From: an uncultured Leptospiraceae bacterium
GTDB taxonomy: Bacteria; Spirochaetota; UBA4802; UB4802
DNA length: 64,000 bases
Direction: 5' to 3'
Assembly: GCA_964486725.1 (NCBI GenBank)
Contig: CAZAOK010000004.1
Coordinates: 6,014-70,013 of the forward strand
Shown here: one piece after another, positions 7,245-40,299 of the stretch
How the letters are laid out: every line of letters begins with the position of its first letter
Position numbering within the stretch: the first letter of the stretch is position 1
Position numbers and translations under genes: made by a program
The notes under the pieces: generated by a model
What the model saw: only the letters and a program-made list of their open reading frames with translations
What the model was told of the DNA's origin: nothing
Databases searched by the model: none

Positions 7245-7395
7245 GTTACTAATCAGCTATTATCAGGTTAAAGATCATTTTCAATATAATGAACAGCTAT
7301 AGAGATGGTTCCCCCGCCTTCGGCGGGGGGAACCATCATAATTTTATTCATTTCGCGATAATTGAATCATTTAATAACGACAGTTGAGCAGTTAC
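7245..7395. repeat. Structured intergenic repeat (MITE/REP-like), copy a, more diverged
   Basis: The central hairpin ggttcccccgccttcggcggggggaacc (7307-7334) is flanked by AT-rich arms and imperfect terminal inverted repeats (gttactaatcagct ... cgacagttgagcagttac). It is homologous to the copies at 24.8, 33.2 and 40.2 kb. Confidence 0.55.
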
Positions 7396-7517
7396 AAAGT
7401 TTTAAAAATTCCGTGGTGTTCAAATTTTTGCTTCTTTCTTGACAAAAAACCGCCGGGTACATATTTCTTAAAGCTGTAGATGTGTAACGTGACAAGATCC
7501 TGTAAACGAGGTTCCTT

Positions 7518-8780
7518 ATGATCGATCCAAGGCTGATTCGTGAAAACATTGATACCGTAAAAGACATGGTAAAGAAGAGGAATATGGAAGGGGTGGTGGA
7601 TTTTTCCCGGCTTGAAACCATTGATGAGGAACGTCGATCACTAATTACCAGTGCAGATGAACTTCGAGAACAACGAAATAAATATTCAAAAGAAATTGGA
7701 AATAAAAAGCAAAAAGGCGAAGACGCAACTGAGATGATGGAAGCGGTAAAGGGGGTTTCTGACAGCATAAAGGAGCTTGAAGCCCGCCTTGCCGTGTTGA
7801 ATGATGAATATAACGACATGGTATTGTCCATTCCCAATATGATTGGTGAAGATGTTCCGGCAGGAGTGGATGAATCTGACAACGTGGAAGTGCGAAGCTG
7901 GGGAAGTAAACCCTCATTCGATTTTGAGCCCCTGCCGCATTATGAAATCGGAACAGCCCTTGATATACTGGATTTTGAACGGGGTGTCAAGATTGCCGGT
8001 GCCAGGTTCTATGTGTACAGGGGGCTGGCTGCCCGCCTGGAAAGGGCAATAATAAACTTCATGCTTGACCTGCATACCCGCGAGAACGGGTACGAAGAGG
8101 TGTTTGGGCCTTTCATCGTTAATGATGAAAGTATGACAGGTACCGGTCAGTATCCAAAGTTCATGGATGAGTATTACCGAATTGAGCGGGACGGGCTCTC
8201 GCTGATCCCCACCGCCGAGGTGACATTGACCAACCTTTACCGGGATGAAATATTACCGGGTGATTCACTACCCGTTAATGTTACCATGCAGTCGTCCTGT
8301 TTCAGAAGAGAAGCGGGAGCAGCAGGCCGTGACACCAGGGGGCTTGTTCGTGTTCACCAGTTTCAGAAGGTTGAACTGGTAAAATTTGTAGAACCTGAAA
8401 CATCATTTGATGAGCTCGAAAAACTGGTGGCCCATGCCGAAGAAGTGTTGAAACGTTTAAACCTGCATTACAGGGTGATGCTCCTTTGCAGTGGAGATAC
8501 TTCGGCATCTTCGGCCAGGACATATGACATAGAAGTCTGGATGCCCGGCCTTAACCGTTACCTGGAGATTTCTTCGTGTTCCAATTTTCTTGATTACCAG
8601 GCCCGCCGGGCGAAGATCCGTTACCGTCCCGCCGCAGGCGGCAAGCCGGTGCTTGTGCACACGTTGAATGGATCAGGTCTGGCCGCGGGTAGAACCATGG
8701 CCGCTGTTATGGAAAACTTTCAAAATAAAGACAAAACCTTCGATATCCCCGATGTACTCAAACCTTACATGGGGATGTAA
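7518..8780 (+). CDS. serS: Seryl-tRNA synthetase
   Basis: 420 aa with an N-terminal coiled-coil arm (MIDPRLIRENIDTVKDMVKKRN) and a class II core (FRREAGAAGRDTRGLVRVHQFQKVE, GSGLAAGRTMAA). Confidence 0.95.
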   Translation: MIDPRLIRENIDTVKDMVKKRNMEGVVDFSRLETIDEERRSLITSADELREQRNKYSKEIGNKKQKGEDATEMMEAVKGVSDSIKELEARLAVLNDEYNDMVLSIPNMIGEDVPAGVDESDNVEVRSWGSKPSFDFEPLPHYEIGTALDILDFERGVKIAGARFYVYRGLAARLERAIINFMLDLHTRENGYEEVFGPFIVNDESMTGTGQYPKFMDEYYRIERDGLSLIPTAEVTLTNLYRDEILPGDSLPVNVTMQSSCFRREAGAAGRDTRGLVRVHQFQKVELVKFVEPETSFDELEKLVAHAEEVLKRLNLHYRVMLLCSGDTSASSARTYDIEVWMPGLNRYLEISSCSNFLDYQARRAKIRYRPAAGGKPVLVHTLNGSGLAAGRTMAAVMENFQNKDKTFDIPDVLKPYMGM

Positions 8781-8797
8781 AACTATATGCGATTACG

Positions 8798-9781
8798 TTG
8801 TTAATGATAGTTGTTGACCTTGAAAATATAGATTGGACAGCATTTCGGCAGGTCGTGGCATTGTCCCTGGCAACCGGCCGGGATTGCAGCATCAGGGGAC
8901 TTGGGCAGCTCTTTGACCACATACATAACAGGCGCATGTGGAAAGTACTGAAAAATATTATGGAATTGATCCCGGGTGTTGACGTAATCGAGCGGGATAA
9001 TCAGGTACGTATTATATCCTCCGGTCTGAAGTACGGAATTTATCACGTTGAAACACACAGGTATGCACCTGTGACGGATATTATTCTTACCCTTGCACCT
9101 GCGTTATCAAATTGTGAATTTGTATCAGAACTACACCTGAAAGGTGTTACCCATTCACCGTACTCACATCCGGCCTCATTTTTGAAAACATCACTGAATG
9201 CGCTGATCACGGACGCGGGATACACGGTGGCCAGTTCGCTGAAAAAATTTGGATTTTATGGTTCAGGTGATGGTGAAATTGTCACGAAAATATATCCCAT
9301 GGTGAAGCATGCAAATTTCATTCTCCCCGTATCGTACAACTGGGAGATGGTGAGTGCCCGTGTGTACGTGGCAAAGATAGATACCGCCTTTGCCAGCTAT
9401 CAAAAAGAATACCTGGCAAAAGAACTGCACATTGATGCTAATTCCATATCAATAATGGAAATTGTGAACAGCAGTGGATATGGGAATCACATTGATGTCA
9501 ATATCCGCGGTGGTGATATGGAGATGGTAGAGTCAATGACCATGATGTTATATAACGCTGATGGTGATTTCGTGTTTACTGATGACAGTATGCGTGACAG
9601 CATGAAAGAATTCTGTGCAAGGATTAAGAATATAATCGATGATAAAAAAATACCATATCCTTTGCTTCGTGAAGCTATTCCGTTTATAAAGCTTGCCGGT
9701 TTGGATTGTGATGAGTATAATGATGCAGAAGATACGGGTATGGAGTTAACACGTAGACTGTGCCAACTGTTTTCATTGTAA
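8798..9781 (+). CDS. RNA 3'-terminal phosphate cyclase (RtcA) family protein, divergent
   Basis: Similar to the RtcA N-terminal region: FRQVVALSLATGRDCSIRGL matches [21 protein letters not shown], and LTLAPALSNCEF..HLKGVTHSPYSHPASF matches LQTVLPAL...GGTDNPSAPPADF. Confidence 0.55.
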   Translation: MLMIVVDLENIDWTAFRQVVALSLATGRDCSIRGLGQLFDHIHNRRMWKVLKNIMELIPGVDVIERDNQVRIISSGLKYGIYHVETHRYAPVTDIILTLAPALSNCEFVSELHLKGVTHSPYSHPASFLKTSLNALITDAGYTVASSLKKFGFYGSGDGEIVTKIYPMVKHANFILPVSYNWEMVSARVYVAKIDTAFASYQKEYLAKELHIDANSISIMEIVNSSGYGNHIDVNIRGGDMEMVESMTMMLYNADGDFVFTDDSMRDSMKEFCARIKNIIDDKKIPYPLLREAIPFIKLAGLDCDEYNDAEDTGMELTRRLCQLFSL

Positions 9782-9871
9782 TGTTTAGTAATAATCATGT
9801 GTACATGAATCAAAGACTGAAGTTGAGCGGCCGAAAAACCGCGGTTATTTATTTATACGTGATATGGGGAA

Positions 9872-10003
9872 TTACACAAGGGTAATAATATTTTCAATTT
9901 TTGCGCAGTCTATACAGTATCGTGTACCCCTGGTTTTTCCCTTGCCTGGTACATAATAGTGGTTGAGACTGTTTAGTTGTTTGCCGCATTTTACGCATTT
10001 CAT
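9872..10003 (-). CDS. Small zinc-ribbon protein (43 aa, two CxxC pairs)
   Basis: Minus-strand ORF MKCVKCGKQLNSLNHYYVPGKGKTRGTRYCIDCAKIENIITLV, too short for the track. Its CxxC...CxxC spacing is typical of a zinc ribbon. It sits in a long AT-rich intergenic region. Confidence 0.35.
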   Translation of the reverse strand: MKCVKCGKQLNSLNHYYVPGKGKTRGTRYCIDCAKIENIITLV

Positions 10004-10459
10004 AATTAATACCCTGATGGATTAGTATGATATAATACACTGTTACTATTTTCGGTTTTCATGATTATTTTGTTAATAAAAAAACTGGGTCATTCCGGAT
10101 TATTGGGAATTGAAAATAATTTTTTATAACAATAACCTTTGAAATTGCAATTCACATAATTTTTTAACTGCAGATAAATGGAATTAAGTGAAAAGTGAAA
10201 GGTGAAAAGTTAGTAGTGACGAGTGATCAGTTCACTTCCCACGGTTCACTATTCACTAATCATCCGCGTTAATCTGCGTTTATCGAGCGAAGCGGGCGGT
10301 TTCATGTATTTAAAGCCGTATGATATCATAAGCTTTTCTTTGGGGGACTAATAATTCATATTCATAAAAATAAATTATGATGGTTTTCCCCAAAATTCCG
10401 GAATGAGCCAAAAAATTAGTTTACAATAAGTAACCGGTGATCTATTATCGCCGACTATT

Positions 10460-10798
10460 TTGAACCTGGAGGAGCATGTATTTATGGCCGCAAAGACCAG
10501 TCAATCGTCAATAACTAAAAGATCAAAGAAAAAGACCAATCTTCAGAAGCTGTCAACGACAATGAATAAACTTGCGCATGACGCGGTTGATAAGGAAGTG
10601 GTAAAGAGGTTTAAAACATACATCGATACTTCATCAGAAGATATCAGCAAGGTAAATCTTGACCAGATCCTTAAAAACTCAGAAGACCTGGTGTTAAGCA
10701 GCTATAATGAGAGCCTGCAACCATACATTAAGCATTACCTGTTTATGAAGAAAAGAGAAGAAAAAAAGAAGACAAAAAAAAGTAAGAATATTTTCTAA
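10460..10798 (+). CDS. Hypothetical lysine-rich small protein (possible nucleic-acid-binding)
   Basis: 112-aa ORF with basic K-rich termini (KRSKKKTNLQK; KKREEKKKTKKSKNIF) and no recognisable domain. It lies immediately upstream of moaD-moaE. Confidence 0.35.
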   Translation: MNLEEHVFMAAKTSQSSITKRSKKKTNLQKLSTTMNKLAHDAVDKEVVKRFKTYIDTSSEDISKVNLDQILKNSEDLVLSSYNESLQPYIKHYLFMKKREEKKKTKKSKNIF

Positions 10799-10803
10799 TA
10801 TTT

Positions 10804-11049
10804 ATGAAAATTACTGTCAAAACATTCGCAACCGTAACGGATATCACCGGCTTTTCTACCTCCAGTATCGAGATAACAGGTGGGAAAACTGTAGGATATG
10901 TGTTGAAGTATTTACAGGGTGAATATCCCAGGCTGAAGAAAATACTTGATTCATTACTGGTTGCGGTTAACGAGGAATATGCAGATCATACCCATGAGTT
11001 GAAAGAGGGTGATGTTCTTGCCATTTTTCCTCCCGTGAGCGGCGGGTAG
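10804..11049 (+). CDS. moaD: MoaD/ThiS-family sulfur carrier protein (C-terminal GG)
   Basis: 81-aa beta-grasp protein ending in VSGG. It overlaps the following MoaE gene, with an RBS in between. Confidence 0.8.
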   Translation: MKITVKTFATVTDITGFSTSSIEITGGKTVGYVLKYLQGEYPRLKKILDSLLVAVNEEYADHTHELKEGDVLAIFPPVSGG

Positions 11050-11057
11050 GAGGTAAA

Positions 11058-11474
11058 ATGGTATACTGCAGGTTTCAGGAAGCCCCCCTTGATATCAATG
11101 AAATCACCGGGATGGTTGGAAAAGAATCAGACGGTGCTGTTGTTATATTCACCGGTCAGGCCAGAAATAAAACCGGTGAAAAAGAGGTTACCCACCTTGA
11201 ATACCAGTTGTACCAGGATATGGCAGAAAAAGAACTGAAAAAGATTTTACATGATGCTTCCGCTAAATGGGGTCTAACCGATTGCGTGGTAATTCACAGG
11301 TTTGGTAAAGTATTACCAGGCCAGGTAAGTATAATTATTGGGGTATCCTCACCTCACCGAGATGAAGCATACTCCGCTTCACGGTATATCATTGATACCA
11401 TAAAAAAAACTGTTCCGGTGTGGAAAAAAGAGTTTTACAGGGATGGTTCAAGCTGGATTACAAAAGGTAGCTAG
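11058..11474 (+). CDS. moaE: Molybdopterin synthase catalytic subunit MoaE
   Basis: 138 aa carrying the motifs GAVVIFTG..R, HLEYQLYQDMAE and SPHRDEAY..IDTIKKTVPVWKKE, typical of MoaE. Confidence 0.85.
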   Translation: MVYCRFQEAPLDINEITGMVGKESDGAVVIFTGQARNKTGEKEVTHLEYQLYQDMAEKELKKILHDASAKWGLTDCVVIHRFGKVLPGQVSIIIGVSSPHRDEAYSASRYIIDTIKKTVPVWKKEFYRDGSSWITKGS

Positions 11475-11859
11475 CCTTGCTTTTCAGTACTTCGTTAAGA
11501 ATCGTTTCAGCATTCCTGTTAAAGTGTTCAGCCTGTGTCCGTGAGACGCGAATGCCGTCGTCGTTTTCAAGCATTTCTTTGAATGTCCTGGCGTTGTGCA
11601 ATATATCAACGATATCCAGTTCAGTCCATCCGTTAGGAGAATAATATTCTTCTACCAGTTCAAGTATCTTGTTGTGATCGTCTGAATCCTGACCATCGTC
11701 GATAAGAAGAATCCGCACCGCGTAAAACATGGATAGATATGAATAAACTATGGAATCGTTGTATAGTTCTTTCTCAAGCATAAGGGAAGATATCTTTAGT
11801 TTTTCCCTGCTTTGCTCAACCCTGAAATTCTTTTTCTTTTCAGTATCTACATTCATCAT
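11458..11859 (-). CDS. HEPN-domain-like protein (Rx4H motif)
   Basis: 133-aa alpha-helical ORF with a C-terminal RTQAEHFN (R-x4-H) motif characteristic of HEPN. It overlaps the moaE 3' end by 17 nt in convergent orientation, and no adjacent nucleotidyltransferase partner is seen. Confidence 0.35.
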   Translation of the reverse strand: MMNVDTEKKKNFRVEQSREKLKISSLMLEKELYNDSIVYSYLSMFYAVRILLIDDGQDSDDHNKILELVEEYYSPNGWTELDIVDILHNARTFKEMLENDDGIRVSRTQAEHFNRNAETILNEVLKSKASYLL

Positions 11860-12113
11860 ATCTCAATTATTCCCTGCGTTAATTCTATATTATAAAGTAT
11901 GACCATCGAACAGGAAAATCCATATTATGTTCCATTAATTATTAAAAAAATTAAATATTTAAGAGAACATTATCTATTGAATATCAACTTATGTAAGTCA
12001 GCAAGAACTTTTTTATAATTTCTGCGACTATGACTACGATGCGGTTTTTTACTTGCGCGCAATACCAGCTGTATATTACCATTCATCGCGAATGTGAAAA
12101 GAAGGAGCGACCA

Positions 12114-13730
12114 ATGAACAAAGACTGGCTATGGTGGAAGCACGGTGTAATATACCAGATATATCCCAGGAGTTTTTATGATACCAACAATGACGGCATA
12201 GGTGATATCCCCGGCATTCATGCCAGGCTGGATTATCTTCAGGATCTGGGTATCGATGGTATATGGTTATCACCCATTAACAGGTCGCCCATGTATGATT
12301 TCGGGTATGATATAAGTGATTACAGGGCAATTGATCCCATCTTCGGCAGCAACGAGGATTTCGAGAAATTTATCAGGGAAGCCCGGAAGCGCAACATACA
12401 TGTTCTCATGGACCTGGTGATGAACCATTCATCCCACCTGCACCAGTGGTTCCTGGATTCCAGGTCGTCACGGGACAATCCCAAACGTGACTGGTATATA
12501 TGGCATGATGGCAAAAAGGGGAAGTATCCAAATAACTGGTATGCTTCTTTCGGAGGACGTGCCTGGGAATGGGACGACCTCACCGGACAGTATTACCTGC
12601 ACACATTTCTGAAAGAGCAGCCAGACCTGAACTGGCGAAGTCCACAACTGAAGAAAGCCATGTTCGACGAAATCCGTTACTGGCTTGACCGGGGTGTGGA
12701 CGGGTTTCGCCTGGACGTGGTGAACTGGTTTATCAAGGATGACAAGTTCAGAAATAATCCCTTTGGCATCGGCCCCTATCCGCGGCCATATGATCTGCAG
12801 AAACATATATATGACCGTAACCGGCCCGAGGTACACCACCTGCTTAATGATTTCAGACGCCTGCTGGATTCATATTCAGAAAGGATGTCGGTTGGCGAGG
12901 TGTACGTAGAAAAACCCGGCAACGTGAGGCAGGCAGCCCGCTACCTTGGTAACGGTGATGACGAGCTTCATCTTTCATTTGATTTCACCATGTTATATGC
13001 CAAATGGGGGGCGAAGCACTATAAAAAAAGTGTGGACACCTGGATGTCCCTCATCCCCGAAAAAGGTTGGCCATGCCATGTGCTTGGAAACCACGACCAG
13101 CCAAGAACAATGTCACGGCTGGGGGGGGACGCAGAAGCTGAGAGAAGAAGCAGGGTACTGGCCGCGCTGCTGCTGACCCTGAAGGGTACTCCCTTCATTT
13201 ACTACGGTGATGAGATCGGAATGAAAGACGGTAAAATTAAGCGCGACCAGCTCATGGACCCGGTTGGGAAAAAATACTGGCCCTTCCATCCAGGCAGGGA
13301 TCCCGAACGAACCCCCATGCAATGGGACAGCACCCCCTTCGCAGGGTTCTCTGATAAAAAGCCGTGGCTTCCGGTCAATCCCGATTATAAAATGGTAAAC
13401 GTGAAAAACCAGCAGAATGACCGGGGATCATTGCTGTCATGGTATAAAAAACTGTTGCACCTGAGAAAAAAAAGCATGGTTCTTTCAATGGGTTCATGGG
13501 AGCCGGTACCAGATCCCGGCAGGGATATATACGCCTATTACCGCTCTTACAAGGGGAAAACCAACCTTGTGCTGTTGAACTTTAAAAATAAACCCAGAAG
13601 GGCAATGGTGCGGTATGACGAACCAACACCGTGGAAAGTGCTTCTTTCAACCCACAGGGGGGAAGGGACGGTAATAGCTGAAATGCCACTTCTCGGTGCG
13701 TATGAAGCAACCATAATGGAAAAGATATAA
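12114..13730 (+). CDS. GH13 alpha-glucosidase / oligo-1,6-glucosidase family (alpha-amylase superfamily)
   Basis: Carries the GH13 catalytic regions WWKHGVIYQIYPRSF, GIDGIWLSPI, HVLMDLVMNHSS, GFRLDVVNW, GEVY and FLGNHDQPR. Start chosen at ATG 12114, behind an AAGGAG RBS. Confidence 0.85.
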   Translation: MNKDWLWWKHGVIYQIYPRSFYDTNNDGIGDIPGIHARLDYLQDLGIDGIWLSPINRSPMYDFGYDISDYRAIDPIFGSNEDFEKFIREARKRNIHVLMDLVMNHSSHLHQWFLDSRSSRDNPKRDWYIWHDGKKGKYPNNWYASFGGRAWEWDDLTGQYYLHTFLKEQPDLNWRSPQLKKAMFDEIRYWLDRGVDGFRLDVVNWFIKDDKFRNNPFGIGPYPRPYDLQKHIYDRNRPEVHHLLNDFRRLLDSYSERMSVGEVYVEKPGNVRQAARYLGNGDDELHLSFDFTMLYAKWGAKHYKKSVDTWMSLIPEKGWPCHVLGNHDQPRTMSRLGGDAEAERRSRVLAALLLTLKGTPFIYYGDEIGMKDGKIKRDQLMDPVGKKYWPFHPGRDPERTPMQWDSTPFAGFSDKKPWLPVNPDYKMVNVKNQQNDRGSLLSWYKKLLHLRKKSMVLSMGSWEPVPDPGRDIYAYYRSYKGKTNLVLLNFKNKPRRAMVRYDEPTPWKVLLSTHRGEGTVIAEMPLLGAYEATIMEKI

Positions 13731-13738
13731 AATAACAA

Positions 13739-16165: not shown

Positions 16166-16210
16166 GGTGTTGAGAACTCTACATGTATAAAATTTAACTA
16201 CAGGGATGGT

Positions 16211-17131
16211 TTATCCTGACAATGAATATTGTAAAGCGTTTTCCAGGTGGGGAAACCTGAACTGGAATCCTTCCTCTGTCAATCGTGATGGCACAACCCT
16301 TGCACTGGACAGAAGCAGTTCGTCCGCCATCTCTCCCGGGAGCGTTCGAAATAAAAATCCAGGAAGATGAAACCATGAAGGCCGACCCATCACCTTCCCC
16401 AGTGTTTTGAAGAATTCCCGTGATCGAAGCTGCTCCGGGGCTGCCAGGTTGTAGGCACCTGAAGATTTTTTACTTTCCATCAGCCAGCATATGGCTTTAA
16501 TCTCGTCCTCGAGGTGAATCCACGGCATCCACTGTGTACCGCTGCCAACATGACCACCCACGAAAAAATTGAAGGGGAGGGTGACAAGTGAAAGGAACCC
16601 GCCGCTGGAAGCCAGGACAAGGGAGGTACGGATGATAACATGGCGAACTCCCATGTCTTTTACAGGGGCTGTTGTTGATTCCCATTCAATAGCCAGATCT
16701 GAAAGAAAACCGTTGCCAGGGTCACAATCCTCGGTAAGTTCAGTATCACCACGTGAGCCGTAATATCCTGATGCGGAGCCCTGTATCAAAACTTCAGGTT
16801 TGTTCTTGGAATTTCTGACTGCCTCAAAAACCGCGTTACCCGCGTTAATCCTGCTATCGCGTATCTTCTCTTTTTTTGACGCAGTCCATCCCGGGCCTGC
16901 TATGGATTCACCTGCCAGGTTGATAATGGCAAAAGCTCCATCCACGTATTGCCCCCAGCCTGTGGATGTTTTCCCATCCCAGGTTACGTAAGAGATGGAT
17001 GAAGTTCCGTTATTCTTTTTGCCTGGATTCCTGGTGAGTATTACAATCTCATATCCTTTTTTCGCCAGCAGGCCTGTGAGATGTGACCCAATGAATCCTG
17101 TTCCCCCTGTTATAATAACTTTTTTGCTCAT
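16211..17131 (-). CDS. TIGR01777/YfcH-family NAD-dependent epimerase/dehydratase (SDR, DUF1731 C-terminus)
   Basis: Has the N-terminal Rossmann motif KVIITGGTGFIGSHL. Its 306-aa length and C-terminal region match the YfcH-like family. Confidence 0.8.
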   Translation of the reverse strand: MSKKVIITGGTGFIGSHLTGLLAKKGYEIVILTRNPGKKNNGTSSISYVTWDGKTSTGWGQYVDGAFAIINLAGESIAGPGWTASKKEKIRDSRINAGNAVFEAVRNSKNKPEVLIQGSASGYYGSRGDTELTEDCDPGNGFLSDLAIEWESTTAPVKDMGVRHVIIRTSLVLASSGGFLSLVTLPFNFFVGGHVGSGTQWMPWIHLEDEIKAICWLMESKKSSGAYNLAAPEQLRSREFFKTLGKVMGRPSWFHLPGFLFRTLPGEMADELLLSSARVVPSRLTEEGFQFRFPHLENALQYSLSG

Positions 17132-17133
17132 AA

Positions 17134-17421
17134 TCAGGTTTCTCCTTTATCTATCTTGAGTTCAATTTCGGTTGCTCCCCAGTTGCTGCCCGCGTCTTTA
17201 AATGATTTTACCATTGGTAATGCGGCAAGCTTCTGGTGAACTGTTTGTTTCAACACCGATTTTCCTTTTCCATGTATTATTATCACCGGCGTAATGCCCT
17301 TTTTCACAGCATTGTGGATGAATTCCTCCACAATTGCTTTCGCGTCACGGGGATGAAACATGTGAAGATCTATTATGTCACCCAGTTCAATTTCTACCGG
17401 GTCGCTGATGTCATCATTCAT
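17134..17421 (-). CDS. Stand-alone Smr domain protein
   Basis: The motif LDLHMFHPRDA..VIIIHGKGKSVLKQ matches the Smr pattern (DLHG..A...V.IIHGKG.G.L). The start is probably the internal ATG at 17421, since the upstream track start has no RBS. Confidence 0.6.
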   Translation of the reverse strand: MNDDISDPVEIELGDIIDLHMFHPRDAKAIVEEFIHNAVKKGITPVIIIHGKGKSVLKQTVHQKLAALPMVKSFKDAGSNWGATEIELKIDKGET

Positions 17422-24541: not shown

Positions 24542-24660
24542 ATCACCTGCATTTCATATACAAAGTTTTTGTTCTAATATAATAAAATATTATTAGTTTT
24601 TCCATATAAAATTACCATATACAGTGTAGAAATCAAGCTTCATGTTGTCATTTCTTTTTT

Positions 24661-24986
24661 CTCACCACAGGGGCACTGAGAAACAGAGAGTCGCGTTTAT
24701 AGCCCTGTAAGGATTACCACAGAGACGCCAAGTACGCTAAGTTCGCAAAGAAGAAGATGTTTATAAATATTTTGTAATTACTCAGCTGTCATGATTAAAA
24801 GTTTCAATTATCGTAAAATGAATAATAATATTATGGCTCCCCCGCCGAAGGCGGGGGGAGATGATCAATATTTTAGTCATAGCTGAGTAGTAACGGTTAT
24901 TGTTATAAAAATTATTTTCAATTCCCAATAATCCGGAAAGAGTGAATAAAAAAATTACCTCTGTTTATCTGTGCCCCTGCAGTGAA
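24661..24986. repeat. Composite intergenic unit bounded by ~30-bp imperfect inverted repeats and containing repeat copy b plus a 44-nt shared segment
   Basis: The left repeat ctcaccacaggggcactgagaaacagagag (24661-24690) is the imperfect reverse complement of cctctgtttatctgtgcccctgcagtgaa (24958-24986), with about 22 of 30 positions matching. Inside, segment 24895-24938 is the reverse complement of 10094-10136. Confidence 0.4.
24774..24894. repeat. Structured intergenic repeat (MITE/REP-like), copy b
   Basis: Arms gtaattactcagctgtcatg and tcatagctgagtagtaac flank the central hairpin ctcccccgccgaaggcggggggag (24837-24860). Confidence 0.6.
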
Positions 24987-27828: not shown

Positions 27829-27829
27829 A

Positions 27830-28411: not shown

Positions 28412-28420
28412 TATTTTTTA

Positions 28421-30406: not shown

Positions 30407-30853
30407 ATGCTCCTGGGGATAGGAAGCCGTTTAAACAGGGACGACAGCGCCGGAAGCATTATTGCCGAAGAGTTCAGAAGCCCTCAATGGGTGGTGGTGG
30501 ACGGGGGGCAGATGCCCGAGAACTATACCGGTGTGGTAAAGAGAGAGGCTCCCGATGTGCTTGTAATCATCGATGCCGCGGGAATGAAACTGGAACCCGG
30601 GGAATTCAGGAGAATTTCACTGGATACCCTTGCAAGATCCCATCTTTTTAACACCCATGCCGCGCCGCCCGCCCTGTTTATCTCTTACCTGCAGTCATTC
30701 GTAAACGAAATATACTTTATCGGAATACAGCCACAGGATACCAGTCCAGGTGAAAGCCTCAGTGAGGCAGTCAGGGAGGGAATAGAAAATATCAAGAAAA
30801 TTCTGCAGGCTGGAAAAATCCGCTCAATACCCGAACTTAAATCCCTTCCGTGA
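30407..30853 (+). CDS. Hydrogenase maturation protease (HycI/HyaD family)
   Basis: MLLGIGSRLNRDDSAGSIIAEEF..DGG..DVLVIIDAAGMKLEPGEF matches the conserved LGIGN..DD.G and D..VDA pattern of Ni-Fe hydrogenase C-terminal endopeptidases. The start is uncertain, between 30344 and 30407. Confidence 0.6.
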   Translation: MLLGIGSRLNRDDSAGSIIAEEFRSPQWVVVDGGQMPENYTGVVKREAPDVLVIIDAAGMKLEPGEFRRISLDTLARSHLFNTHAAPPALFISYLQSFVNEIYFIGIQPQDTSPGESLSEAVREGIENIKKILQAGKIRSIPELKSLP

Positions 30854-30874
30854 TCCAATTGTTCCTGTGGCGGG

Positions 30875-33088: not shown

Positions 33089-33182
33089 AGAATAACCCGT
33101 GAAATTTTTTTAACTCGAGTTCATTATATCTTATTCAATTTGAATTGTGTCAATATTTATACTTTTAAGTTACAAGAAAAGT

Positions 33183-33334
33183 AGTAACTACTCACCTATG
33201 ACTAAAATATTGATTATATACTTCATAATGAAAAGGAATTTGAGCATCTTCCCCCGCCTTCGGCGGGGGAAGATGCAGGATTATTATTCATTTTGCATAA
33301 TTTGTAATTATTCAGCATGACAGTTGAGTAGTTA
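33183..33334. repeat. Structured intergenic repeat (MITE/REP-like), copy c (inverted orientation)
   Basis: gtaactactcacctatgactaaaatattgat, then hairpin gcatcttcccccgccttcggcgggggaagatgc (33243-33275), then cattttgcataatttgtaattattcagcatgacagttgagtagttac. It is close to the reverse complement of copy d. Confidence 0.6.
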
Positions 33335-33419
33335 CGAAAAGTATTGGAATGAATAAAAAAATAGAAACATTGTAAATTGGTATTGTTGTTGACGAAAGGT
33401 GGTAAATATGAATGAATAA

Positions 33420-35024
33420 ATGGGCGTATTAATAATTACGTGCGTGGGCGGTGTCATGTTATTTGAAAAACTTAAACACTTCTTTCTTTCATCATATGAA
33501 GATAGTACATTTGTACATTATCAAAAAGCAAAAGTTATGATGTGGTTTGAGATAGTATTAATCTTTCTTACTTCGTTATCGGTTATCAGCACGAATCTTT
33601 TCTCTCCACACGTGGCTACCCTGCAGTACAACCTGAGTATGAGCATTGTTATAGGATCCTTTGTTGTGTGTATCTTCATCCTGAAAACCGGCTGGTATAA
33701 AACAACCGCCTACGTTGCCATACTGTTCCCCCTTGTTCTTATTCTGTACCTGGCGTTACTGGTTCCCACCCAGGCAGGAAAATATATATACATGTTGTAT
33801 TTACTTGTGTTCATTGTTATGGCCGCCCTCTTTGGTACCAGGATAACGGTATGGATTATAACGGGTATTGTTATTGCATGCGGAACCACTGTTGTGCTGA
33901 ATTCTCATGGAATAATAGCAGATAATGTCATGGTAACCACCATTACTCATTTTGCTATCATATCATTTATGATTTGTATTCTCAGTTACCTAATCGTGAA
34001 TATAATGATGCAGGCAATAGCCAGCATGGAGAGAAAACAGGAATTTTTAAACAGGGAGCATAATAAGAAAAAGGATGTAATACGGGAAATTGACAAGGTA
34101 GCGCAATCATTGAGCCAGTACTCACGAACGATGACAGAAAGCTCAAGAAAATTCGCCGATAATGCCCAGTCGCAGGCTTCCAGCATTGAAGAAATTACAT
34201 CCACCCTTGAGGAAGTAGCCGCAAGCGCTGAATCGTCTGTACAAATGACTGACGCGCAAAAGAGCAGAACGGAGAATCTCATGGAAGATCTTCAGCAGAT
34301 GCATCAACTTGTTTCAGACAGCAGTAATAATATCGAAAATGCCCAGGTGCAGCAGGAAGGTTTAAATGCCAGAATAGGGGTAGCCCGGGACGAAGTTTCA
34401 AAAAGCCTCGAATCCATGAAATTTGCACTTGATAGCAGTAAAAAGGTGTCTGAGGCTACTAACCTTATCATTGACGTGTCAGATCAGATTAATCTTTTAT
34501 CACTTAACGCGTCAATTGAAGCAGCCAGGGCGGGCGAATCCGGCAAAGGCTTTGCGGTAGTTGCCGAAGAGATTGGCAAGCTTGCTGAAAAAACCCAGAC
34601 AATAACAAAAGAAATTACTTCACTGGTCGATAGAACCGATCATGAATTGTATGAGACTGGAAGATCCATGGAAAACGTAAGTGATACTGCGGTACATATT
34701 GAGAAACTTTCTGTTGATTTCGGACACTTGTTTGTGAAGGTAAAGGAGTTGATTGAACGCGACCTTGGTATAAATAGCGAGTTACAAAAAAGCGCAGAAA
34801 ATGTCCTAAGTGGGGCTGACGAGGTGAAGGTGTCAATCAACGAGTTGAAGAATGCAATTGATGAAATTACCAGTTCAGTGTCTATTATCAATGATTCCAC
34901 TCAGCAGCTGGCATCAGGGTCTGATGAATTATCTGAATTTGCTGTCTCCCTGCTGGATACAACAAACACTTTGGGAAAGATTCTTACAGATGATGATTAT
35001 AATAATGATAAAGGGACATTTTAA
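33420..35024 (+). CDS. Methyl-accepting chemotaxis protein with multi-TM N-terminal domain
   Basis: 534 aa with about 6 N-terminal TM helices and a C-terminal MCP signalling domain ([33 protein letters not shown]). The exact start is uncertain. Confidence 0.8.
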
Positions 35025-35260
35025 CCATAAAAAATGATTGAATGAATAAAGCAGCTATAATATGTTACCGTTAGACCTTTTATATGGTTTCAGATTACAA
35101 TTTTTATATAAATGTGTTTCCTGAATATATATACATGATTTAGTAAAAAAAGTGTTCAGATTTATAAATCAGGTCGAATATATTCTTTTAATACGCAATA
35201 ATATAGAAATAAAAAAAGTATGACCGGTTGGATAATTAATCTCAGTTCAGGATTGTTTCT

Positions 35261-35728
35261 ATGAAAAATTATAATGACATCATAATCCAGTTTATGAAAA
35301 GTAAAGCAGACAGGATGGAAAAAGAGCTTTCCATACCGGGAACCTGGTATTTTAACGAGGGTGACCGTAAGGATATTTTAAGCTGGAATAACGAAGAAGC
35401 CCTACGGGTGTGGAAACGAATTAAGGAAAATATTCAAAAGCACGGTTGTTCAGGGCTCAGGTACGAGCTTTGCCCCTTCTGTCACAAAAATGGTTACGAA
35501 CATAAGGGATGTTACAAAGCATTAAAGAATCCCATTTGTGTGAAATGCGGTTATGGTAGCCGCCATGGACTCTGTATCAGTGACGAAGAAGGTGAAAGTG
35601 AATACAGAAAAATTCTTCAAGCATTTGATGATACCAGAATGAGCATGTATAAGTTTTTTTCAAATGATTATTATAAACATCTTGTTAAAAAACTTGAATT
35701 AAGTTTGAACGAAAACGTATGTGCGTAA
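35261..35728 (+). CDS. Hypothetical Cys-rich protein (putative zinc-binding)
   Basis: 155 aa containing CSGLRYELCPFCHKNGYEHKGCYKALKNPICVKCGYGSRHGLC. No known family is recognised. Confidence 0.4.
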   Translation: MKNYNDIIIQFMKSKADRMEKELSIPGTWYFNEGDRKDILSWNNEEALRVWKRIKENIQKHGCSGLRYELCPFCHKNGYEHKGCYKALKNPICVKCGYGSRHGLCISDEEGESEYRKILQAFDDTRMSMYKFFSNDYYKHLVKKLELSLNENVCA

Positions 35729-35732
35729 ATAC

Positions 35733-35775
35733 ACGTATTTGGGATACACTAAGTAATATCCCAAATACGTGCCAT
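35733..35775. terminator. Perfect 15-bp palindrome (hairpin) immediately after the stop codon
   Basis: cacgtatttgggata-cactaagtaa-tatcccaaatacgtg starts 5 nt after the 35261..35728 stop. No strong T-tract follows, so it may be a bidirectional terminator or an operator. Confidence 0.4.
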
Positions 35776-36089
35776 ATTCTAACACCTTTCTTACTCATAA
35801 CTCATGAAATTTCTCAAGCTGAACAGGTGTTTACCCAACTCCTTGTTGTTGCTTACAAACTCCTGATATATATGTTCGTGGTTTCTGAAGTAATTGCAAT
35901 CAGCATTCAGGCAAAATGTTTGTATTTCATATTTCCTTTTCATGGTACCCTCCTTTACAAGAATAATACAAATGATCATTTGATCAAAATGCTTTATAGA
36001 TACAGTATATAGTGAAATTGTTGAAAAGTCAACAAAGGGTCACTTATAATACATATACGGGTGATAGTTGAAGTCAGGGTTAAATAATA

Positions 36090-36680
36090 TTATCCCTTGA
36101 AAAGGGATATGATGTATTTCATAACATTCAATGTGTCCATTGGAACTGGGTCAATAGATTCAAACAGGCCTGTGGAAAGAACAATCATTTGGGCAATTCT
36201 CGCGGTAAATTCAGCGTCAAAGTCTGATTTTCTTCTATTGGGGATGTCAGATCGGGCATCATCAATAATATTTTGATATAACTCCAGGTGTTGTCTTATA
36301 AACTGGCGCAGACGAATCATTATTTTTTCTTCTTCGTACGCGTACATAACGAGGTTTATAAAGATACGTATAGTGCTTGTGTCAAGAATAAACCTTTCAA
36401 TACCATACATTGCTGAAATGCTTGCTTTCTCTTTTGATTCAAGATTCCCTTTTAATACCTGCAGGTGATCATATTGGATGTCGTTAAATATGTATTCCAT
36501 AAGCTCAAGGTACATCTCTTCTTTTGTTGGAAAATAATGTAGAAGTCCACCTTTGGAGAAACCCGCTTCATCTGCAACATCCTGTACAGTGATTCGCGAG
36601 TAGACATCCTGTTGCAAACATTGTTTAAGTGCATCCAGGATTATAATCTTTTTCTTTCTGATCTTTTCCTGTTTATCCAT
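36090..36680 (-). CDS. TetR/AcrR family transcriptional regulator
   Basis: The N-terminal HTH ITVQDVADEAGFSKGGLLHYFPTKEEMY is the TetR signature, followed by a helical ligand-binding domain. Confidence 0.85.
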   Translation of the reverse strand: MDKQEKIRKKKIIILDALKQCLQQDVYSRITVQDVADEAGFSKGGLLHYFPTKEEMYLELMEYIFNDIQYDHLQVLKGNLESKEKASISAMYGIERFILDTSTIRIFINLVMYAYEEEKIMIRLRQFIRQHLELYQNIIDDARSDIPNRRKSDFDAEFTARIAQMIVLSTGLFESIDPVPMDTLNVMKYIISLFKG

Positions 36681-36971
36681 TTTGAACCTTTTATATTTAT
36701 AATATTACATACGGATAATAGGGGAGTTCAAAGTATTACCATTTCAGGTTTGCAGGGTAAATAAAGGGTGTTGGTAATACGTTTAGTAATCCGCAAAAAT
36801 TGTTATATTTTTAAATATAACTCCCAACGCAGTTGGTCAAGCTTTTTTCATTTTAAACACGAAGGATTTCAGGGTATAAATTAAGTGTAAAGAACTGGAA
36901 CCTCGAAACCGAAAAACTATATATAAATGTATATATTCGTTCAATTTACTTGTTTCCATGGAATAGCAGGT

Positions 36972-38792
36972 TTGAGAACAATAAAAAGAACAGCAGTAAC
37001 TATTCTGATATTTTTAGCTTGTGTGGCGGTATTACCCTTATCACATGCTCAATTCCTGCTGGATAATGGTGATGGCCCCGTTATCCAGCCCAAAAATGAA
37101 AAAAAATCGAAGGGACTTCCGTCCCATGTAGTGCGTAATATAGTGGCATCGTCTGTGCCAGATGTTGAAGGTGCCATAAAAATTTCATGGGATATCCACC
37201 CTGATTCAAGCAATACCTTTATAGTGGGGAGAACTGCAATACTGCCCACCACTAAGGAAAAAGCTTTATCCGCAACATCAATAAAAGTTATTCCACCCGG
37301 TGCGGAGCCAGTAGTCATAGATTCAAATTTACCTCCCGGTCAGTATTACTATGTGGTTCTTGCCAGGGAGAAGATTCAATCTGGCGATATTGAGCTTTAC
37401 CCCGACGTAAACTATACTGGTGAACCGGTGGTTATAGCAAGTAATTATGGGGAGAAACAGGTTCAGGGTTATCCTGAACAGGTTACCCTTATACATGCCA
37501 GGTTGATAAATAAAACACAGGTTCTTCTTACATGGAAAGGTTTAAACAGGGATAATATCAAATATAATATTTACAGGGATACAAAACCACTTAATACTCC
37601 GCAAAGTATTAAAAACGCGAAGAAAATTGCAAGTATTCAGGGTTCCAGGGAAAGCTATATCGACAGGGATCTTGAGGGTACAGGCAATTATTATTACGCA
37701 ATAACGACAAGTGATATGACCGGCAATGAGGATTTACAGCTCATCCCGGATCAGAGTTACCTGACAACAGGTGTACAAGTAATTGTCAAGAGTGATGTGA
37801 CAGTTAAGAACATAGAATCCCGCATGCAGGATAACGGCACGGTACAGGTTACCTGGGACAGGGCAGGGGTGAACGCACAGGAGCTTCTCCTGTACAGGTA
37901 TGAAGAACCCATTCGAAACGCTGAAAGGCTGGCTCTTTCAGATTCACTGGGCACTGTTGATGCGAAATATAATGAATATTTAGACAAAAATCCTCCCCCC
38001 GGCCAGCATTATTATGCAGTCCTGACCAAGTTAGCTGATGGATCAATTGATACAACCCTTCACAGTGGACAGAATTATACCACTACCCCGGTAAAACTGG
38101 GAGAACCCATTGAGATTACACGAATAAATGCTTCACAAGAGAAGAATGGTGTTTCAATAACCTGGCGGTACAGGGGTTCTTCCCGAAGCAAGTATTACAA
38201 ACTGTATCGCACAAACAAGATACCATCTTCGCCAGTGGAAATAAAAGATACCTACCTGGTGGATATTGTTAACGTAACAGAAGAGTCTTATCTCGATACA
38301 GGTATTAGGCCGGGAGAGTATTATTATGTGATAGTCCCCGAAGATTTTGAGAGTGATCCCGATTTAACACTGGTTAAAGATGTGAACATTACAGCAAAGC
38401 CTGTTACTATTGAAAAGACTGTAAAGAAAGTTGAGCAAAAGAAAAAGAAGAAAACACGGGAAAAAGTGATACCTGAAGAAAAAGAACCGGAGCGTATTAC
38501 TCCTCTTCCCGGAAAAGAGTTCCAAGCGGTTACCAGGGATTTAGACAATATTATTCATTCAACCTTTGATAAGGGGTACTACAGGACCGCGATAAAATCA
38601 TTACAGAAGGTTATTGATGTATCCGATAATGACTATGAAGCAGCAAAGGCTAAATTATTTACCGGTCGATCATATATTGAATTAAAACAATACAGGAAAG
38701 GGATTGATTACCTTATGCAGAAAGATGTTTTAAAACATTTTCCAGAAGATGCCCTGTTCTGGAGGGACTATGCCATTCAGAGAGTTCGGTAA
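36972..38792 (+). CDS. Secreted protein with repeated FN3-like beta-sandwich modules
   Basis: Has a signal peptide (RTIKRTAVTILIFLACVAVLPLSHA) with a probable TTG start at 36972. At least four ~90-aa repeats share W..(G/L)...YN(I/L)YR..P and QYYYV/NYYYA/HYYAV motifs, and the C-terminus is TPR-like. Confidence 0.5.
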   Translation: MRTIKRTAVTILIFLACVAVLPLSHAQFLLDNGDGPVIQPKNEKKSKGLPSHVVRNIVASSVPDVEGAIKISWDIHPDSSNTFIVGRTAILPTTKEKALSATSIKVIPPGAEPVVIDSNLPPGQYYYVVLAREKIQSGDIELYPDVNYTGEPVVIASNYGEKQVQGYPEQVTLIHARLINKTQVLLTWKGLNRDNIKYNIYRDTKPLNTPQSIKNAKKIASIQGSRESYIDRDLEGTGNYYYAITTSDMTGNEDLQLIPDQSYLTTGVQVIVKSDVTVKNIESRMQDNGTVQVTWDRAGVNAQELLLYRYEEPIRNAERLALSDSLGTVDAKYNEYLDKNPPPGQHYYAVLTKLADGSIDTTLHSGQNYTTTPVKLGEPIEITRINASQEKNGVSITWRYRGSSRSKYYKLYRTNKIPSSPVEIKDTYLVDIVNVTEESYLDTGIRPGEYYYVIVPEDFESDPDLTLVKDVNITAKPVTIEKTVKKVEQKKKKKTREKVIPEEKEPERITPLPGKEFQAVTRDLDNIIHSTFDKGYYRTAIKSLQKVIDVSDNDYEAAKAKLFTGRSYIELKQYRKGIDYLMQKDVLKHFPEDALFWRDYAIQRVR

Positions 38793-38842
38793 AATTATAT
38801 CGTGGAACACTGTTATCACACAAATGATTGAGGAGCTTATTA

Positions 38843-40078
38843 ATGAAGACTAAAACTATTACAGGGGTAATACTAATAGTATTCGGTCTGGGTTTATTTA
38901 TATACTATGACCAGTATATACAGCCTGAGAGGGAAGCATCAAAGCTCCTTGTCGAAGCAAAAATGATATATGAACGTGGTAACAGGGAAGCAGTAAATGA
39001 TGCTATAAATCTTTTCACAAAAATTATCGCCCGTTATCCTGAAACGGGCATGGTAGGTGAAGCGTACTATTATATCGGGCAATGTTATGAAAAACTTGGT
39101 TTGAAGAGACTTGCATACCTGAAATATGTATACGTTCTTAAAAACAACCGTGAGCAGCTGTCAAAGTCAATGCAAAGAGATATTATTGTACGATTGGCAC
39201 ATATAAATGTTTTGAAAAAAAATTCTGAAGAAGCAATCCACCAGATGTATAGCCTTCTTAATACTTCCTCAAACAAGGAGTTCAGAAGCAGGGTATATTC
39301 CGAGCTTGGGCATACATTTCTAAAGACGGGTGAGTTTAGCAAGGCCCGGCGAATGTTTGAGATTGCTCTACGTGAACACGGCAGTAATGAGGATGCGATA
39401 CTTGGCAGGGCACGCTCATTAAAACATCTTGGCCAGGCAACAAAAGCCTATGACAACTATGACTATTTTCTTAAATACTATGGTGGAATAAGTCAATATG
39501 CTGATGATGTAAGGAGCTCATACAGGGATCAGGCTTACCAGAGCGGTCTTCATGCCTTTCGAAAGGGACAGTACTGGAAAGGAATATCCTTTTTCCAAAG
39601 GGTGCTTACACATTTTCCCGGTCACAAGAGGAGCGAGAATGCACTTTACTGGACGGGTGAATGCTATTTCGCATTGAAAAAATTTGACAGGGCTATAGGG
39701 TATTTCAACAGGACCTTAACTAATAATTTCTACCATAAAGATCAGGACGCGCAGATAAAAAAAGGATACTCATATTTTATGAGCAAGCGATTCGATCTTG
39801 CTGCCAGGGAATTTCAGAAATATTTAAGATATTATCCCAGGGGGAAATACGTATCTGTTGCCCGTGAGTGGAATAAGATGAGTACAAAAGAACTTCAATA
39901 CAGGATACAGCGGAGCAGTCCGTCTGGTGATGTGAAGAAGGAAGAATCATTTCCAGGTGATGAAAATGTTGATGAAAACCTGGATGATGAGCTTGATCTT
40001 CAGGAAGATGAAGAAGTTGCCGCTACTGATCAGACTATATATAGAAAAATAGAACGGGTGAATGTAGCAGAGCTTTAA
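38843..40078 (+). CDS. Membrane-anchored TPR-repeat protein with acidic C-terminal tail
   Basis: Has an N-terminal TM (GVILIVFGLGLFIYY), several TPR-like repeats and a DE-rich tail. ATG 38843 is preceded by a GAGGAG RBS. Confidence 0.55.
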   Translation: MKTKTITGVILIVFGLGLFIYYDQYIQPEREASKLLVEAKMIYERGNREAVNDAINLFTKIIARYPETGMVGEAYYYIGQCYEKLGLKRLAYLKYVYVLKNNREQLSKSMQRDIIVRLAHINVLKKNSEEAIHQMYSLLNTSSNKEFRSRVYSELGHTFLKTGEFSKARRMFEIALREHGSNEDAILGRARSLKHLGQATKAYDNYDYFLKYYGGISQYADDVRSSYRDQAYQSGLHAFRKGQYWKGISFFQRVLTHFPGHKRSENALYWTGECYFALKKFDRAIGYFNRTLTNNFYHKDQDAQIKKGYSYFMSKRFDLAAREFQKYLRYYPRGKYVSVAREWNKMSTKELQYRIQRSSPSGDVKKEESFPGDENVDENLDDELDLQEDEEVAATDQTIYRKIERVNVAEL

Positions 40079-40150
40079 GATTCGGGCTTAAGATAATAAT
40101 ACAAGATGGTCACCTCGGAAAGGTGGCCATACTTTTATATTATGAAAAAA

Positions 40151-40299
40151 CGTAATTACTCAGCTGTCATGCTGAATAATTACAAATTATGCTAAAATGA
40201 ATAATCCTGCATCTCCCCCGCCGAAGGCGGGGGGAGATGCTCAAATTCATTTTCATTATGAAGTAAATGATCAATATTTTAGTCATAGCTGAGTAGTCA
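40151..40299. repeat. Structured intergenic repeat (MITE/REP-like), copy d (most complete)
   Basis: gtaattactcagctgtcatgctgaataattac forms its own hairpin arm. It is followed by the central hairpin gcatctcccccgccgaaggcggggggagatgc (40208-40239) and the right arm atcaatattttagtcatagctgagtagtcac. Confidence 0.6.

Follow-up and report, generated by a model that had tools for sequence, protein, structure and literature searches.

Genomic setting and architecture

The window, that is the whole 64-kb stretch of DNA analysed here, holds four intergenic repeats, referred to below as copies a to d. Copy a lies beside tRNA-Phe and serS, copy b beside relA and Sua5-TsaC, copy c beside NhaP and an MCP gene, and copy d beside a TPR gene and DUF6602. 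The original prediction had named tRNA-Phe/serS, relA/tsaC and the MCP gene among these neighbours and placed all four repeats correctly, save that the ends of copies c and d each move by one base.

7245–7395, minus strand: probable MITE copy a, subfamily 1, 151 nt, left terminal inverted repeat (TIR) at 7395 in the minus-strand reading
7304–7337: central palindrome of copy a, GATGGTTCCCCCGCC-TTC-GGCGGGGGGAACCATC
24774–24894, plus strand: probable MITE copy b, subfamily 1, 121 nt, right arm with an internal deletion of ~30 nt
24837–24860: central palindrome of copy b, CTCCCCCGCC-GAA-GGCGGGGGGAG
33184–33335, minus strand: probable MITE copy c, subfamily 2, 152 nt
33244–33276: central palindrome of copy c, GCATCTTCCCCCGCC-TTC-GGCGGGGGAAGATGC
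40152–40300, plus strand: probable MITE copy d, subfamily 2, 149 nt
40209–40240: central palindrome of copy d, GCATCTCCCCCGCC-GAA-GGCGGGGGGAGATGC

A TIR of about 20 nt, GTAAYTACTCARCTGTCATG, is common to all four copies. Its outermost 14 nt (GTNACTACTCAGCT) form a perfect inverted repeat in every copy, which becomes imperfect from there onward to about 20 nt. Within the arms the block AAAATGAATAAT is conserved in alignments of the copies, and at the centre each copy carries a GC-only core, CCCCCGCC-GAA/TTC-GGCGGGGG, that was matched in none of 100 shuffles of the window, where overall GC is 40.6%. Read on the plus strand, the loop is CTTC at 7.3 and 33.2 kb and GAAG at 24.8 and 40.2 kb. The left arm of copy d is itself a hairpin of 14 bp. 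All of these features, from the inverted repeats and the arm block to the two orientations and the ~40% GC background, had been described beforehand from inspection of the window and were recovered on analysis. Copies c and d are 93% identical to each other, and a profile search of the window with nhmmer returned exactly copies a to d and no fifth. With lengths of 121–152 nt the repeats are too short to encode a transposase; they are short and non-coding, as MITEs are.

The genes on either side of copies b and c are transcribed divergently, whilst copies a and d are found downstream of same-strand genes, and the orientation of the copies relative to their neighbours is inconsistent. Copy d is flanked by the terminator of the TPR gene (40106–40130) and by a conserved TTGACA (40324–40329), whilst copy b is nested within other repeat or mobile-element debris. 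Placement between a terminator and the following promoter looks like the pattern expected for tolerated insertions. The proposal that the copies mark recombination-prone or regulatory boundaries is only loosely true, in that copy b sits in mobile-element debris and copies fall between a terminator and the next promoter. The window also holds a second MITE family, whose ends match ISL3 ends (GGCTCATTCCGG...).

Target-site duplications and empty sites

The flanks of the repeats were compared with one another and with the corresponding sites in related genomes, giving the following features.

33176–33183: left target-site duplication (TSD) of copy c, GAAAAGTA, perfect 8 bp
33336–33343: right TSD of copy c, GAAAAGTA, perfect 8 bp
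40144–40151: left TSD of copy d, GAAAAAAC, perfect 8 bp
40301–40308: right TSD of copy d, GAAAAAAC, perfect 8 bp
7237–7244 and 7396–7403: degenerate TSD of copy a, ATAGTGTT against AAAGTTTT, 6/8
9812–9814: site empty in the window and occupied in the relative L013 (2201–2352; = L008), ~89–90% identical

The search for duplications suggested by the original prediction was therefore rewarded at copies c, d and, in degenerate form, a, with none at copy b (3/8 match). Beyond the window, 8/8 duplications flank L005_7k and L012 in relatives, and 7/8 duplications flank L013m and L017; at the decayed copy L005_3k the flanks hold no duplication. In Chloroflexota, the identical 20-nt TIR and 8-bp duplications enclose unrelated cores, with 8/8 matches at L014 (CGGTACGA) and L001 (TAAATATG). 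Coincidence between A/T-rich flanks is an unlikely source of these duplications, since six independent 8/8 matches occur over three core types. The recurrence of the same TIR and the same duplication length around unrelated cores indicates that the TIR plus the stagger is the functional unit.

Comparison with relatives shows the same sites without the element. Site c is empty in L019–L021, and L037 likewise lacks the element. L019, at ~86% DNA identity, has only one GAAAAGTA, its sequence being ...ATGAAAAGTAATG... at the position of GAAAAGTA[c]GAAAAGTA in the window; its BLAST segments at this site overlap by precisely 8 nt, which is the TSD of copy c. L020, L021 and L034 have no element at site d, and the entire block 24666–24958, with copy b inside it, is missing from L036, a relative of ~90% identity. 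Conversely, the copy that L013 and L008 carry at the window's ~9813 site is a 152-nt member of subfamily 2 with the duplication AAACGATT/AAAAGATT, and at site a L013 has a different copy (4781–4858), of subfamily 2 and with its centre deleted. Gene order is unchanged in relatives without the element. The family has been active since the window organism split from relatives at 85–90% DNA identity.

Dispersed, intergenic, imperfectly palindromic units of ~120–150 nt might also be REP/BIME-type palindromes spread by a RAYT, an IS200-like tyrosine transposase, or integron attC-like sites. REPs are short palindromes (~20–40 nt) without terminal inverted repeats or target duplications, whilst attC sites recombine without duplications, stand in cassette arrays beside an integrase and have GTTRRRY/RYYYAAC cores. 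The present elements, by contrast, have 20-nt TIRs and 8-bp duplications, are solitary and lie beside housekeeping genes, and their ends read GTAAC/GTTAC then TAC, a misfit to GTTRRRY. An origin of either type is extremely improbable.

Copies in other genomes

In addition to the four copies in 64 kb, at least 12 further distinct copies are dispersed in related MAGs and metagenome contigs. Scans for the exact 20-nt TIR gave 10 loci in 185,579 species genomes and eight in JGI metagenomes, which proved to be MITE copies, truncated copies or solitary matches. One of them, L007, is a truncated left arm adjoining a gene end; another, L006 (Desulfocapsa), lacks a right end that can be recognised and is possibly a chance match. 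The MAG contigs L008 and L010 terminate within the element, as would be expected if the repeat is present in multiple copies, and the elements account for broken contigs in MAGs of the lineage.

Folding and the central hairpin

The original prediction left room for a dispersed sRNA or a terminator module as well as for a mobile element. The structure of the copies bears on both. Were they structured RNA genes or cis-acting modules (an sRNA or a regulatory hairpin), they would be conserved for a functional RNA fold, and the fold is indeed very stable, with a foldback over the whole element length (z = -4.7 to -8.7) and a GC-rich central stem of 10–16 bp. The outer part of this stem differs between the subfamilies yet stays complementary, with six pairs changed on both sides. 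Its covariation score was matched in 0 of 500 shuffles, albeit with a signal derived from only about three lineages. In the central helix 97% of cells are paired, far above slid controls, and in the TIR helix 97.5%.

Against an RNA function, however, both strands fold equally well, and the loop flips between GAA and TTC among copies in the same element orientation. It is GAA in all window copies and TTC in all copies of one relative, in both subfamilies. Such inversion fits a DNA palindrome, because the palindrome is left unchanged whereas an RNA loop would differ on any one strand. Older copies have lost the GC stem without compensation (L005_3k, L015 and L017), and others lack the entire centre (L003, 66 nt; L013p, 78 nt; L009; L015). 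The inconsistent orientation relative to adjacent genes, the presence or absence of copies between close relatives and the target duplications also weigh against this reading. A search of the whole window at Rfam gathering thresholds returned only four tRNAs, and permissive searches with copies a and d gave best scores of 11.8–20.6 bits against thresholds of 34–114, which is noise. A structured RNA is highly improbable on this evidence. The stem covariation, read here as a property of a DNA palindrome, could instead reflect selection for some hairpin function. A strong internal hairpin is present in every core type.

The central hairpin might alternatively be a portable bidirectional intrinsic terminator or insulator, with copies persisting because they terminate transcription at gene boundaries. 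A GC-rich stem of this length in intergenic DNA would suit such a role, as would the position of copies a and d downstream of same-strand genes, and effects on transcript ends have been reported for certain other bacterial MITEs. Yet in a consensus scan none of the four central hairpins was terminator-like on either strand, the stem being followed by no T-run. Copies b and c separate divergent genes, where nothing needs termination; directly before copy d, the upstream gene already has a canonical terminator of its own; and relatives without the element keep the same gene order. Dedicated terminators are thus very unlikely. The sRNA and terminator readings both go unsupported, since no T-tract follows any copy and Rfam holds no match.

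Proposed insertion and mobilisation

The four repeats are very probably copies of a MITE with recent insertion activity in the intergenic DNA of an uncultured spirochaete lineage. The original suggestion of a MITE-like non-autonomous element is firmly upheld by the TIRs, the 8-bp TSDs, the empty sites in relatives and the deletion derivatives. A DDE-type transposase encoded elsewhere would bind the ~20-nt TIRs (GTAAYTACTCARCTGTCATG) and insert the element at a target site cleaved with an 8-bp stagger, the repair of which would yield the direct duplication of 8 bp. Insertions would be kept where they are harmless, in intergenic and mostly A/T-rich DNA, such tolerated gaps probably including those from a terminator to the next promoter and those between divergent promoters. 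The GC-only centre would be the apex of the whole-length foldback, a feature of the DNA and not an RNA gene. Its palindromy may be maintained through arm-to-arm correction, by template switching or cruciform processing, and the centre may also persist as a stable hairpin limiting read-through into or out of the element.

No autonomous element with these TIRs was found among the 10 genome and eight metagenome exact-TIR loci, viral contigs, plasmids and phages, and mobilisation in trans is therefore an inference. IS elements are often missing from MAGs. In viral contigs a 17-nt TIR pattern had nine matches, all without the following TIR bases or an inverted partner and thus due to chance. Plasmids and phages were searched by BLASTN with two queries, the TIR plus 17 nt and the full copy d, and gave nothing or chance 23-nt matches. 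With the Chloroflexota-type MITE as query, plasmids gave only a short palindrome, ATTCCCGC...GCGGGAAT, which is not an IS and which recurs in many copies in replicons of Neisseria and Azospirillum.

An ISL3 transposase lies beside the orthologous MCP gene in the relative L019, and ISL3 was considered as the mobiliser because it also makes 8-bp duplications. It was rejected, since its ends (GGCTCATTCCGG...) give no match to the TIR at up to 5 mismatches. IS66 elements have inverted repeats of 20–30 bp beginning GTAAGCG and generate 8-bp direct repeats (PMC11946415). As GTAA termini with 8-bp duplications are the quoted hallmark of IS66, an IS66-like enzyme may serve, with low confidence, as a first guess at the mobiliser. 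The element termini read GTAAYTA against GTAAGCG, with only GTAA in common; the inverted repeat length of ~20 nt fits, and the elements do have 8-bp direct repeats. A literature search for the combination of MITE, IS66 and 8 bp found none.

That the identical TIR occurs in Chloroflexota is a hint that the transposase has spread horizontally. A more speculative and rather unlikely proposal is that GTAAYTACTCARCTGTCATG and the 8-bp stagger form the recognition unit of an uncatalogued transposase lineage that spans Spirochaetota and Chloroflexota, serves at least three unrelated hairpin-bearing cores and has autonomous copies that public genomes contain rarely or not at all. In that case, the internal hairpin could be a requirement for transposition and not a passenger, and the uniform loop orientation would reflect a replicative or master-copy process.

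Relation to known systems

The family appears to be new and its kind is well known; it is neither a new RNA gene nor a regulatory signal. The earlier remark that it was not recognised as a described family is consistent with the Rfam results and with a full-text literature search for the TIR sequence, which found no paper, and the family thus appears undescribed, albeit of an ordinary kind. Nothing here alters existing knowledge of how MITEs work. What the window offers is a clean, recently active MITE, with filled and empty sites explicit between genomes 85–90% identical, which can serve both to mark strains and as bait in the search for the mobilising transposase. Annotation should treat the loci as mobile-element repeats to be masked, rather than enter them as sRNAs, terminators or regulatory motifs.

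A number of parallels can be drawn with the Correia elements (CREE/NEMIS) of Neisseria. These too are non-coding, intergenic elements of ~100–155 nt with TIRs, dispersed in both orientations; they fold into a hairpin over their whole length, fall into size classes with and without internal deletions, and are not known to have a cognate transposase. They differ in duplicating TA rather than 8 bp, in having TIRs of 26 nt and unrelated sequence, in the lack of a GC-only central palindrome, and in belonging to a different phylum. ERIC/IRU and RUP/BOX elements are likewise intergenic imperfect palindromes of ~100–130 nt, with size variants arising from internal deletions or insertions. Their sequences are unrelated, however, and whilst target duplications and mobility are poorly documented for ERIC, duplications and empty sites are explicit in the present family. 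ISL3, which is present in the lineage, also makes 8-bp duplications but has GG... ends. The likeness to IS66 resides in the GTAA start, the inverted repeats of ~20–30 bp and the 8-bp direct repeats on insertion (PMC11946415); the ends nevertheless diverge from its signature after GTAA, and neither an IS66-type transposase nor a full-length element with these ends was found. Finally, the family belongs to the same class of elements as those of a prokaryote-wide MITE catalogue, in which Leptospirales is among the MITE-richest orders, the reported median being 154 per genome, ~90% of them intergenic (PMC11602168); the nearest MAGs place the present host in Leptospiraceae.

Architecture and genomic position of the repeat family

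The four intergenic repeats are copies of a real, recently active MITE family, one of the readings offered by the original prediction, and all the hallmarks of a MITE that could be tested are present. Reading each stretch and aligning the copies in a common orientation bore out the single architecture claimed for them, along with all the neighbouring genes that had been named. The coordinates first given for copies a and b were right, whilst those for c and d were each shifted by one base.

Copies of the repeat in the window, with refined ends
7245-7395, minus strand: copy a, subfamily 1; beside tRNA-Phe (7052-7126) and serS
24774-24894, plus strand: copy b, subfamily 1; beside a RelA/SpoT gene and a Sua5/YrdC-family gene
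33184-33335, minus strand: copy c, subfamily 2; beside genes for an NhaP-type antiporter and an MCP
40152-40300, plus strand: copy d, subfamily 2; beside genes for a TPR protein and a DUF6602 protein

From its left end, GTAAYTRCTCARCTGTCRTK, the aligned element runs through an A/T-rich arm holding an invariant AAATGAATAA block to a GC-only palindrome, CCCCCGCC-GAA-GGCGGGGG, and on through a second A/T-rich arm to the right end, CATAGCTGAGTAGTNAC, the inverted complement of the left. The GC core occurred in none of 100 dinucleotide-preserving shuffles of the window (GC content 40.6%), and a profile made from the four copies found no fifth copy in the window. The left arm of subfamily 2 (40152-40183 and 33304-33335) holds a second, inverted copy of the terminal inverted repeat (TIR), GTAATTACTCAGC-TGTCAT-GCTGAATAATTAC, giving a 14-bp hairpin and three TIR-like sequences per element.

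The block 3' of copy d that had been called uncharacterised (40444-42432) codes for the DUF6602 protein and then for a protein with a von Willebrand factor A domain. This pair keeps the same order in two relatives, L020 and L021, with a CfpA_C-domain protein next in L020, and has no link to the MITE.

Target-site duplications and empty sites

Examination of the copy ends revealed the target-site duplications that transposition had been expected to leave: perfect 8-bp direct repeats flank copy c (33176-33183 and 33336-33343, GAAAAGTA, 8/8) and copy d (40144-40151 and 40301-40308, GAAAAAAC, 8/8). Copy a is flanked by a decayed repeat (6/8) and copy b by none (3/8). Among copies in relatives, L005_7k (AATATTTT) and L012 (ATTTATAA) have 8/8 duplications, and L013m and L017 have 7/8 each. 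The spirochaete targets are mostly A/T-rich: GAAAAGTA, GAAAAAAC, AATATTTT, ATTTATAA, AAAMGATT and GTTTRTTT.

Syntenic contigs of relatives were retrieved via homologues of the flanking proteins. At site c the window has the form ...CAAGAAAAGTA[152 nt]GAAAAGTATTGGAATG..., and the corresponding stretch of L019 (GCA_018399855.1, DNA ~86% identical), which is without the element, is ...GGGCACATGAAAAGTAATGAAATG...; BLAST aligns L019 in two segments whose overlap is precisely the 8 duplicated bases. Copy c is also missing in the more distant L020, L021 and L037. Site d is empty in L020, L021 and L034, which keep a terminator hairpin upstream and TTGACA downstream, and at site b L036 (~90% identical) lacks the entire block 24666-24958, b included. 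The reverse case is found in L013/L008 (89-90% identical, syntenic with window 257-12339), which has an extra copy of 152 nt in the gap separating the RTC-domain gene (8798-9781) from the following gene; the window site at ~9812-9814 is empty. These differences indicate that the family has moved since the genomes diverged.

The tRNA-Phe/serS site is occupied in both the window and the ~90% identical L013, at positions matching within 0-1 nt. The window has a 151-nt subfamily 1 element with the hairpin (7245-7395), whilst L013 has a 78-nt subfamily 2 element without it (4781-4858); the flanks are ~95% identical and the elements ~65%. This could reflect independent insertions at a hot spot, or replacement through recombination between dispersed copies.

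Copies in related genomes

Full-length, deleted and truncated copies were found in relatives by exact match to the 20-nt left end, using one genome per species plus metagenomes. The species genomes yielded 10 loci, 7 of them in two MAGs titled 'uncultured Leptospiraceae bacterium' (CAZVRB01 and CAYFSO01), and the metagenomes 8 further loci. MAG contigs L008 and L010 break off inside the element, as expected at multi-copy repeats.

Copies in other genomes and metagenomes, by contig
Full-length: L002; L005 (two); L012 (= L010); L013; L017
Internally deleted, GC centre gone: L003, 66 nt; L013 4781-4858, 78 nt; L009; L015
Truncated: L007; L011; L018

The central palindrome

Each copy is predicted to fold as one long foldback, TIR on TIR and arm on arm, with the GC stem at the apex (MFE -35 to -59 kcal/mol, z = -4.7 to -8.7, the strands about equal). 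An alignment of 11 copies (window a-d, L002, L012, L013, L015, L017 and L005) shows almost no variation in the inner GC pairs of the central stem, whereas the outer 5-6 pairs are lineage-specific yet complementary: GATGGTT/AACCATC in subfamily 1, GCATCT/AGATGC in subfamily 2 and ACAGTT/ACCTGT in L005_7k. In all, 6 pairs are changed on both sides; the covariation score was reached in 0/500 shuffles and was 3- to 7-fold lower in slid controls. This represents only ~3 independent events.

The evidence argues that the palindrome is a property of the DNA rather than of an RNA. Folding is symmetric between the strands; in both subfamilies some copies have the 3-nt centre inverted (GAA versus TTC) when read in one element orientation; and older copies are broken without compensation or have lost the centre. 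Uncompensated G-to-A breaks lie in the GC stems of L005_3k, L015 and L017, and between copy a and L012 the entire asymmetric stem is inverted (C6/G5 versus C5/G6). The alternative of a dispersed sRNA is not borne out, there being no Rfam match for the element, a fold alike on both strands and a loop inverted among copies. Nor does a terminator module fit: 0/4 central hairpins were terminator-like in a consensus scan, since no T-run follows the stem. The genes on either side of b, and likewise of c, are divergent, and d directly follows a canonical terminator (40106-40130).

The centre is GAA in 4/4 window copies and TTC in all CAZVRB/Ga0102938 and Ga0272443 copies, whichever the subfamily. In these small numbers, loop orientation is uniform per genome and different between genomes across both subfamilies, which hints at concerted change or at separate master copies per genome.

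A second MITE and the mosaic around copy b

An unrelated 323-bp MITE lies at 10087-10409, with ISL3-type ends (GGGTCATTCCGGATTATTGGGAA / GGCTCATTCCGGAATTTTGGGGAA) and an 8-bp duplication (AAAAAACT/AAAAAATT). It is missing in syntenic L013, where a single AAAAAATT stands. L019 has a complete ISL3 element (2758-3972, transposase of 404 aa) with near-identical ends.

Copy b sits inside a mosaic of other repeats (24655-24773 and 24895-24985), its right end touching the inner side of a 50-nt ISL3-type end fragment (24895-24945). The whole nest is flanked by inverted 'CACAGGGGCAC.GAGAAACAGAGAG' repeats, and inverted 'TCACCACAGGGGCACTGAGAAACAGAGAG ... CCTCTGTTTATCTGTGCCCCTGCAGTGAAA' repeats bracket copy b. 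At this site L036 has a solitary copy of the right-hand bracketing repeat and nothing more, and L037 has another element, ~400 bp long, whose ends are related (ACCGCAGAGGCGCTAAGGACGCGAAGTTCGCAGAGAG). A segment of the left arm (24709-24770) is found again in L019 (9519-9580). In L018 (1-209), the GTAAC-type MITE, the family of copies a-d, stops after ~39 nt and is followed by ISL3-type MITE interior (L018 1-165 matches window 10387-10227), so the two families interrupt each other in this lineage.

Mobilisation and relation to known elements

In the GTAAC-type family, TIRs and a duplication fixed at 8 bp are accompanied by precise empty sites and deletion derivatives, and close relatives are polymorphic for the insertions. 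On the proposed mechanism, a transposase acting in trans would bind the TIRs and the element would be integrated at an 8-bp staggered cut, with insertions presumably surviving in mostly A/T-rich intergenic targets of spirochaete genomes. Sequence comparison supports TIR plus stagger as the probable functional unit, because Chloroflexota genomes (51-60% GC) carry MITEs in which the identical 20-nt TIR, together with 8-bp duplications, surrounds cores of unrelated sequence.

Chloroflexota MITEs with the same TIR
L014 1314-1450: duplication CGGTACGA, 8/8
L004 5527-5646 (= L016 3390-3509)
L001 5906-6017: duplication TAAATATG, 8/8; 28-bp A/T-rich stem, also with a GAA centre

Within the L004 core, 30-45 nt (GGATTCCCGC...GCGGGAATGAC) match a palindrome that replicons of Neisseria gonorrhoeae and Azospirillum contain in dozens of copies.

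No full-length transposase-bearing element was found among exact-TIR matches in genomes and metagenomes, and viral contigs, plasmids and phages gave chance matches only. The ISL3 element beside the orthologous MCP gene of L019 was rejected as mobiliser, its ends (GGCTCATTCCGG) being unrelated to the TIR. IS66 elements have an 'IR starting with GTAAGCG' and an 8-bp DR (PMC11946415), and the present family resembles them in its GTAA termini, IRs of ~20 nt and 8-bp direct repeats. Of GTAAGCG, however, it has GTAA only, and with this alone in common an IS66 origin of the transposase is a lead that falls short of classification.

The family was originally not recognised as a described one, consistent with our finding no name for it: a full-text literature search for the TIR gave no hits, and none of the sequence collections queried lists the family. 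Loci a-d are fittingly annotated as mobile repeats, not as sRNAs or terminators. Only two aspects are unusual, the sharing of a TIR between different phyla and the missing autonomous partner. The family thus appears to be undescribed but of a well-known kind, the element working like the classic bacterial MITEs Correia, ERIC and RUP. Leptospirales are reported to be one of the orders richest in MITEs, the median genome having 154, ~90% of them intergenic (PMC11602168).
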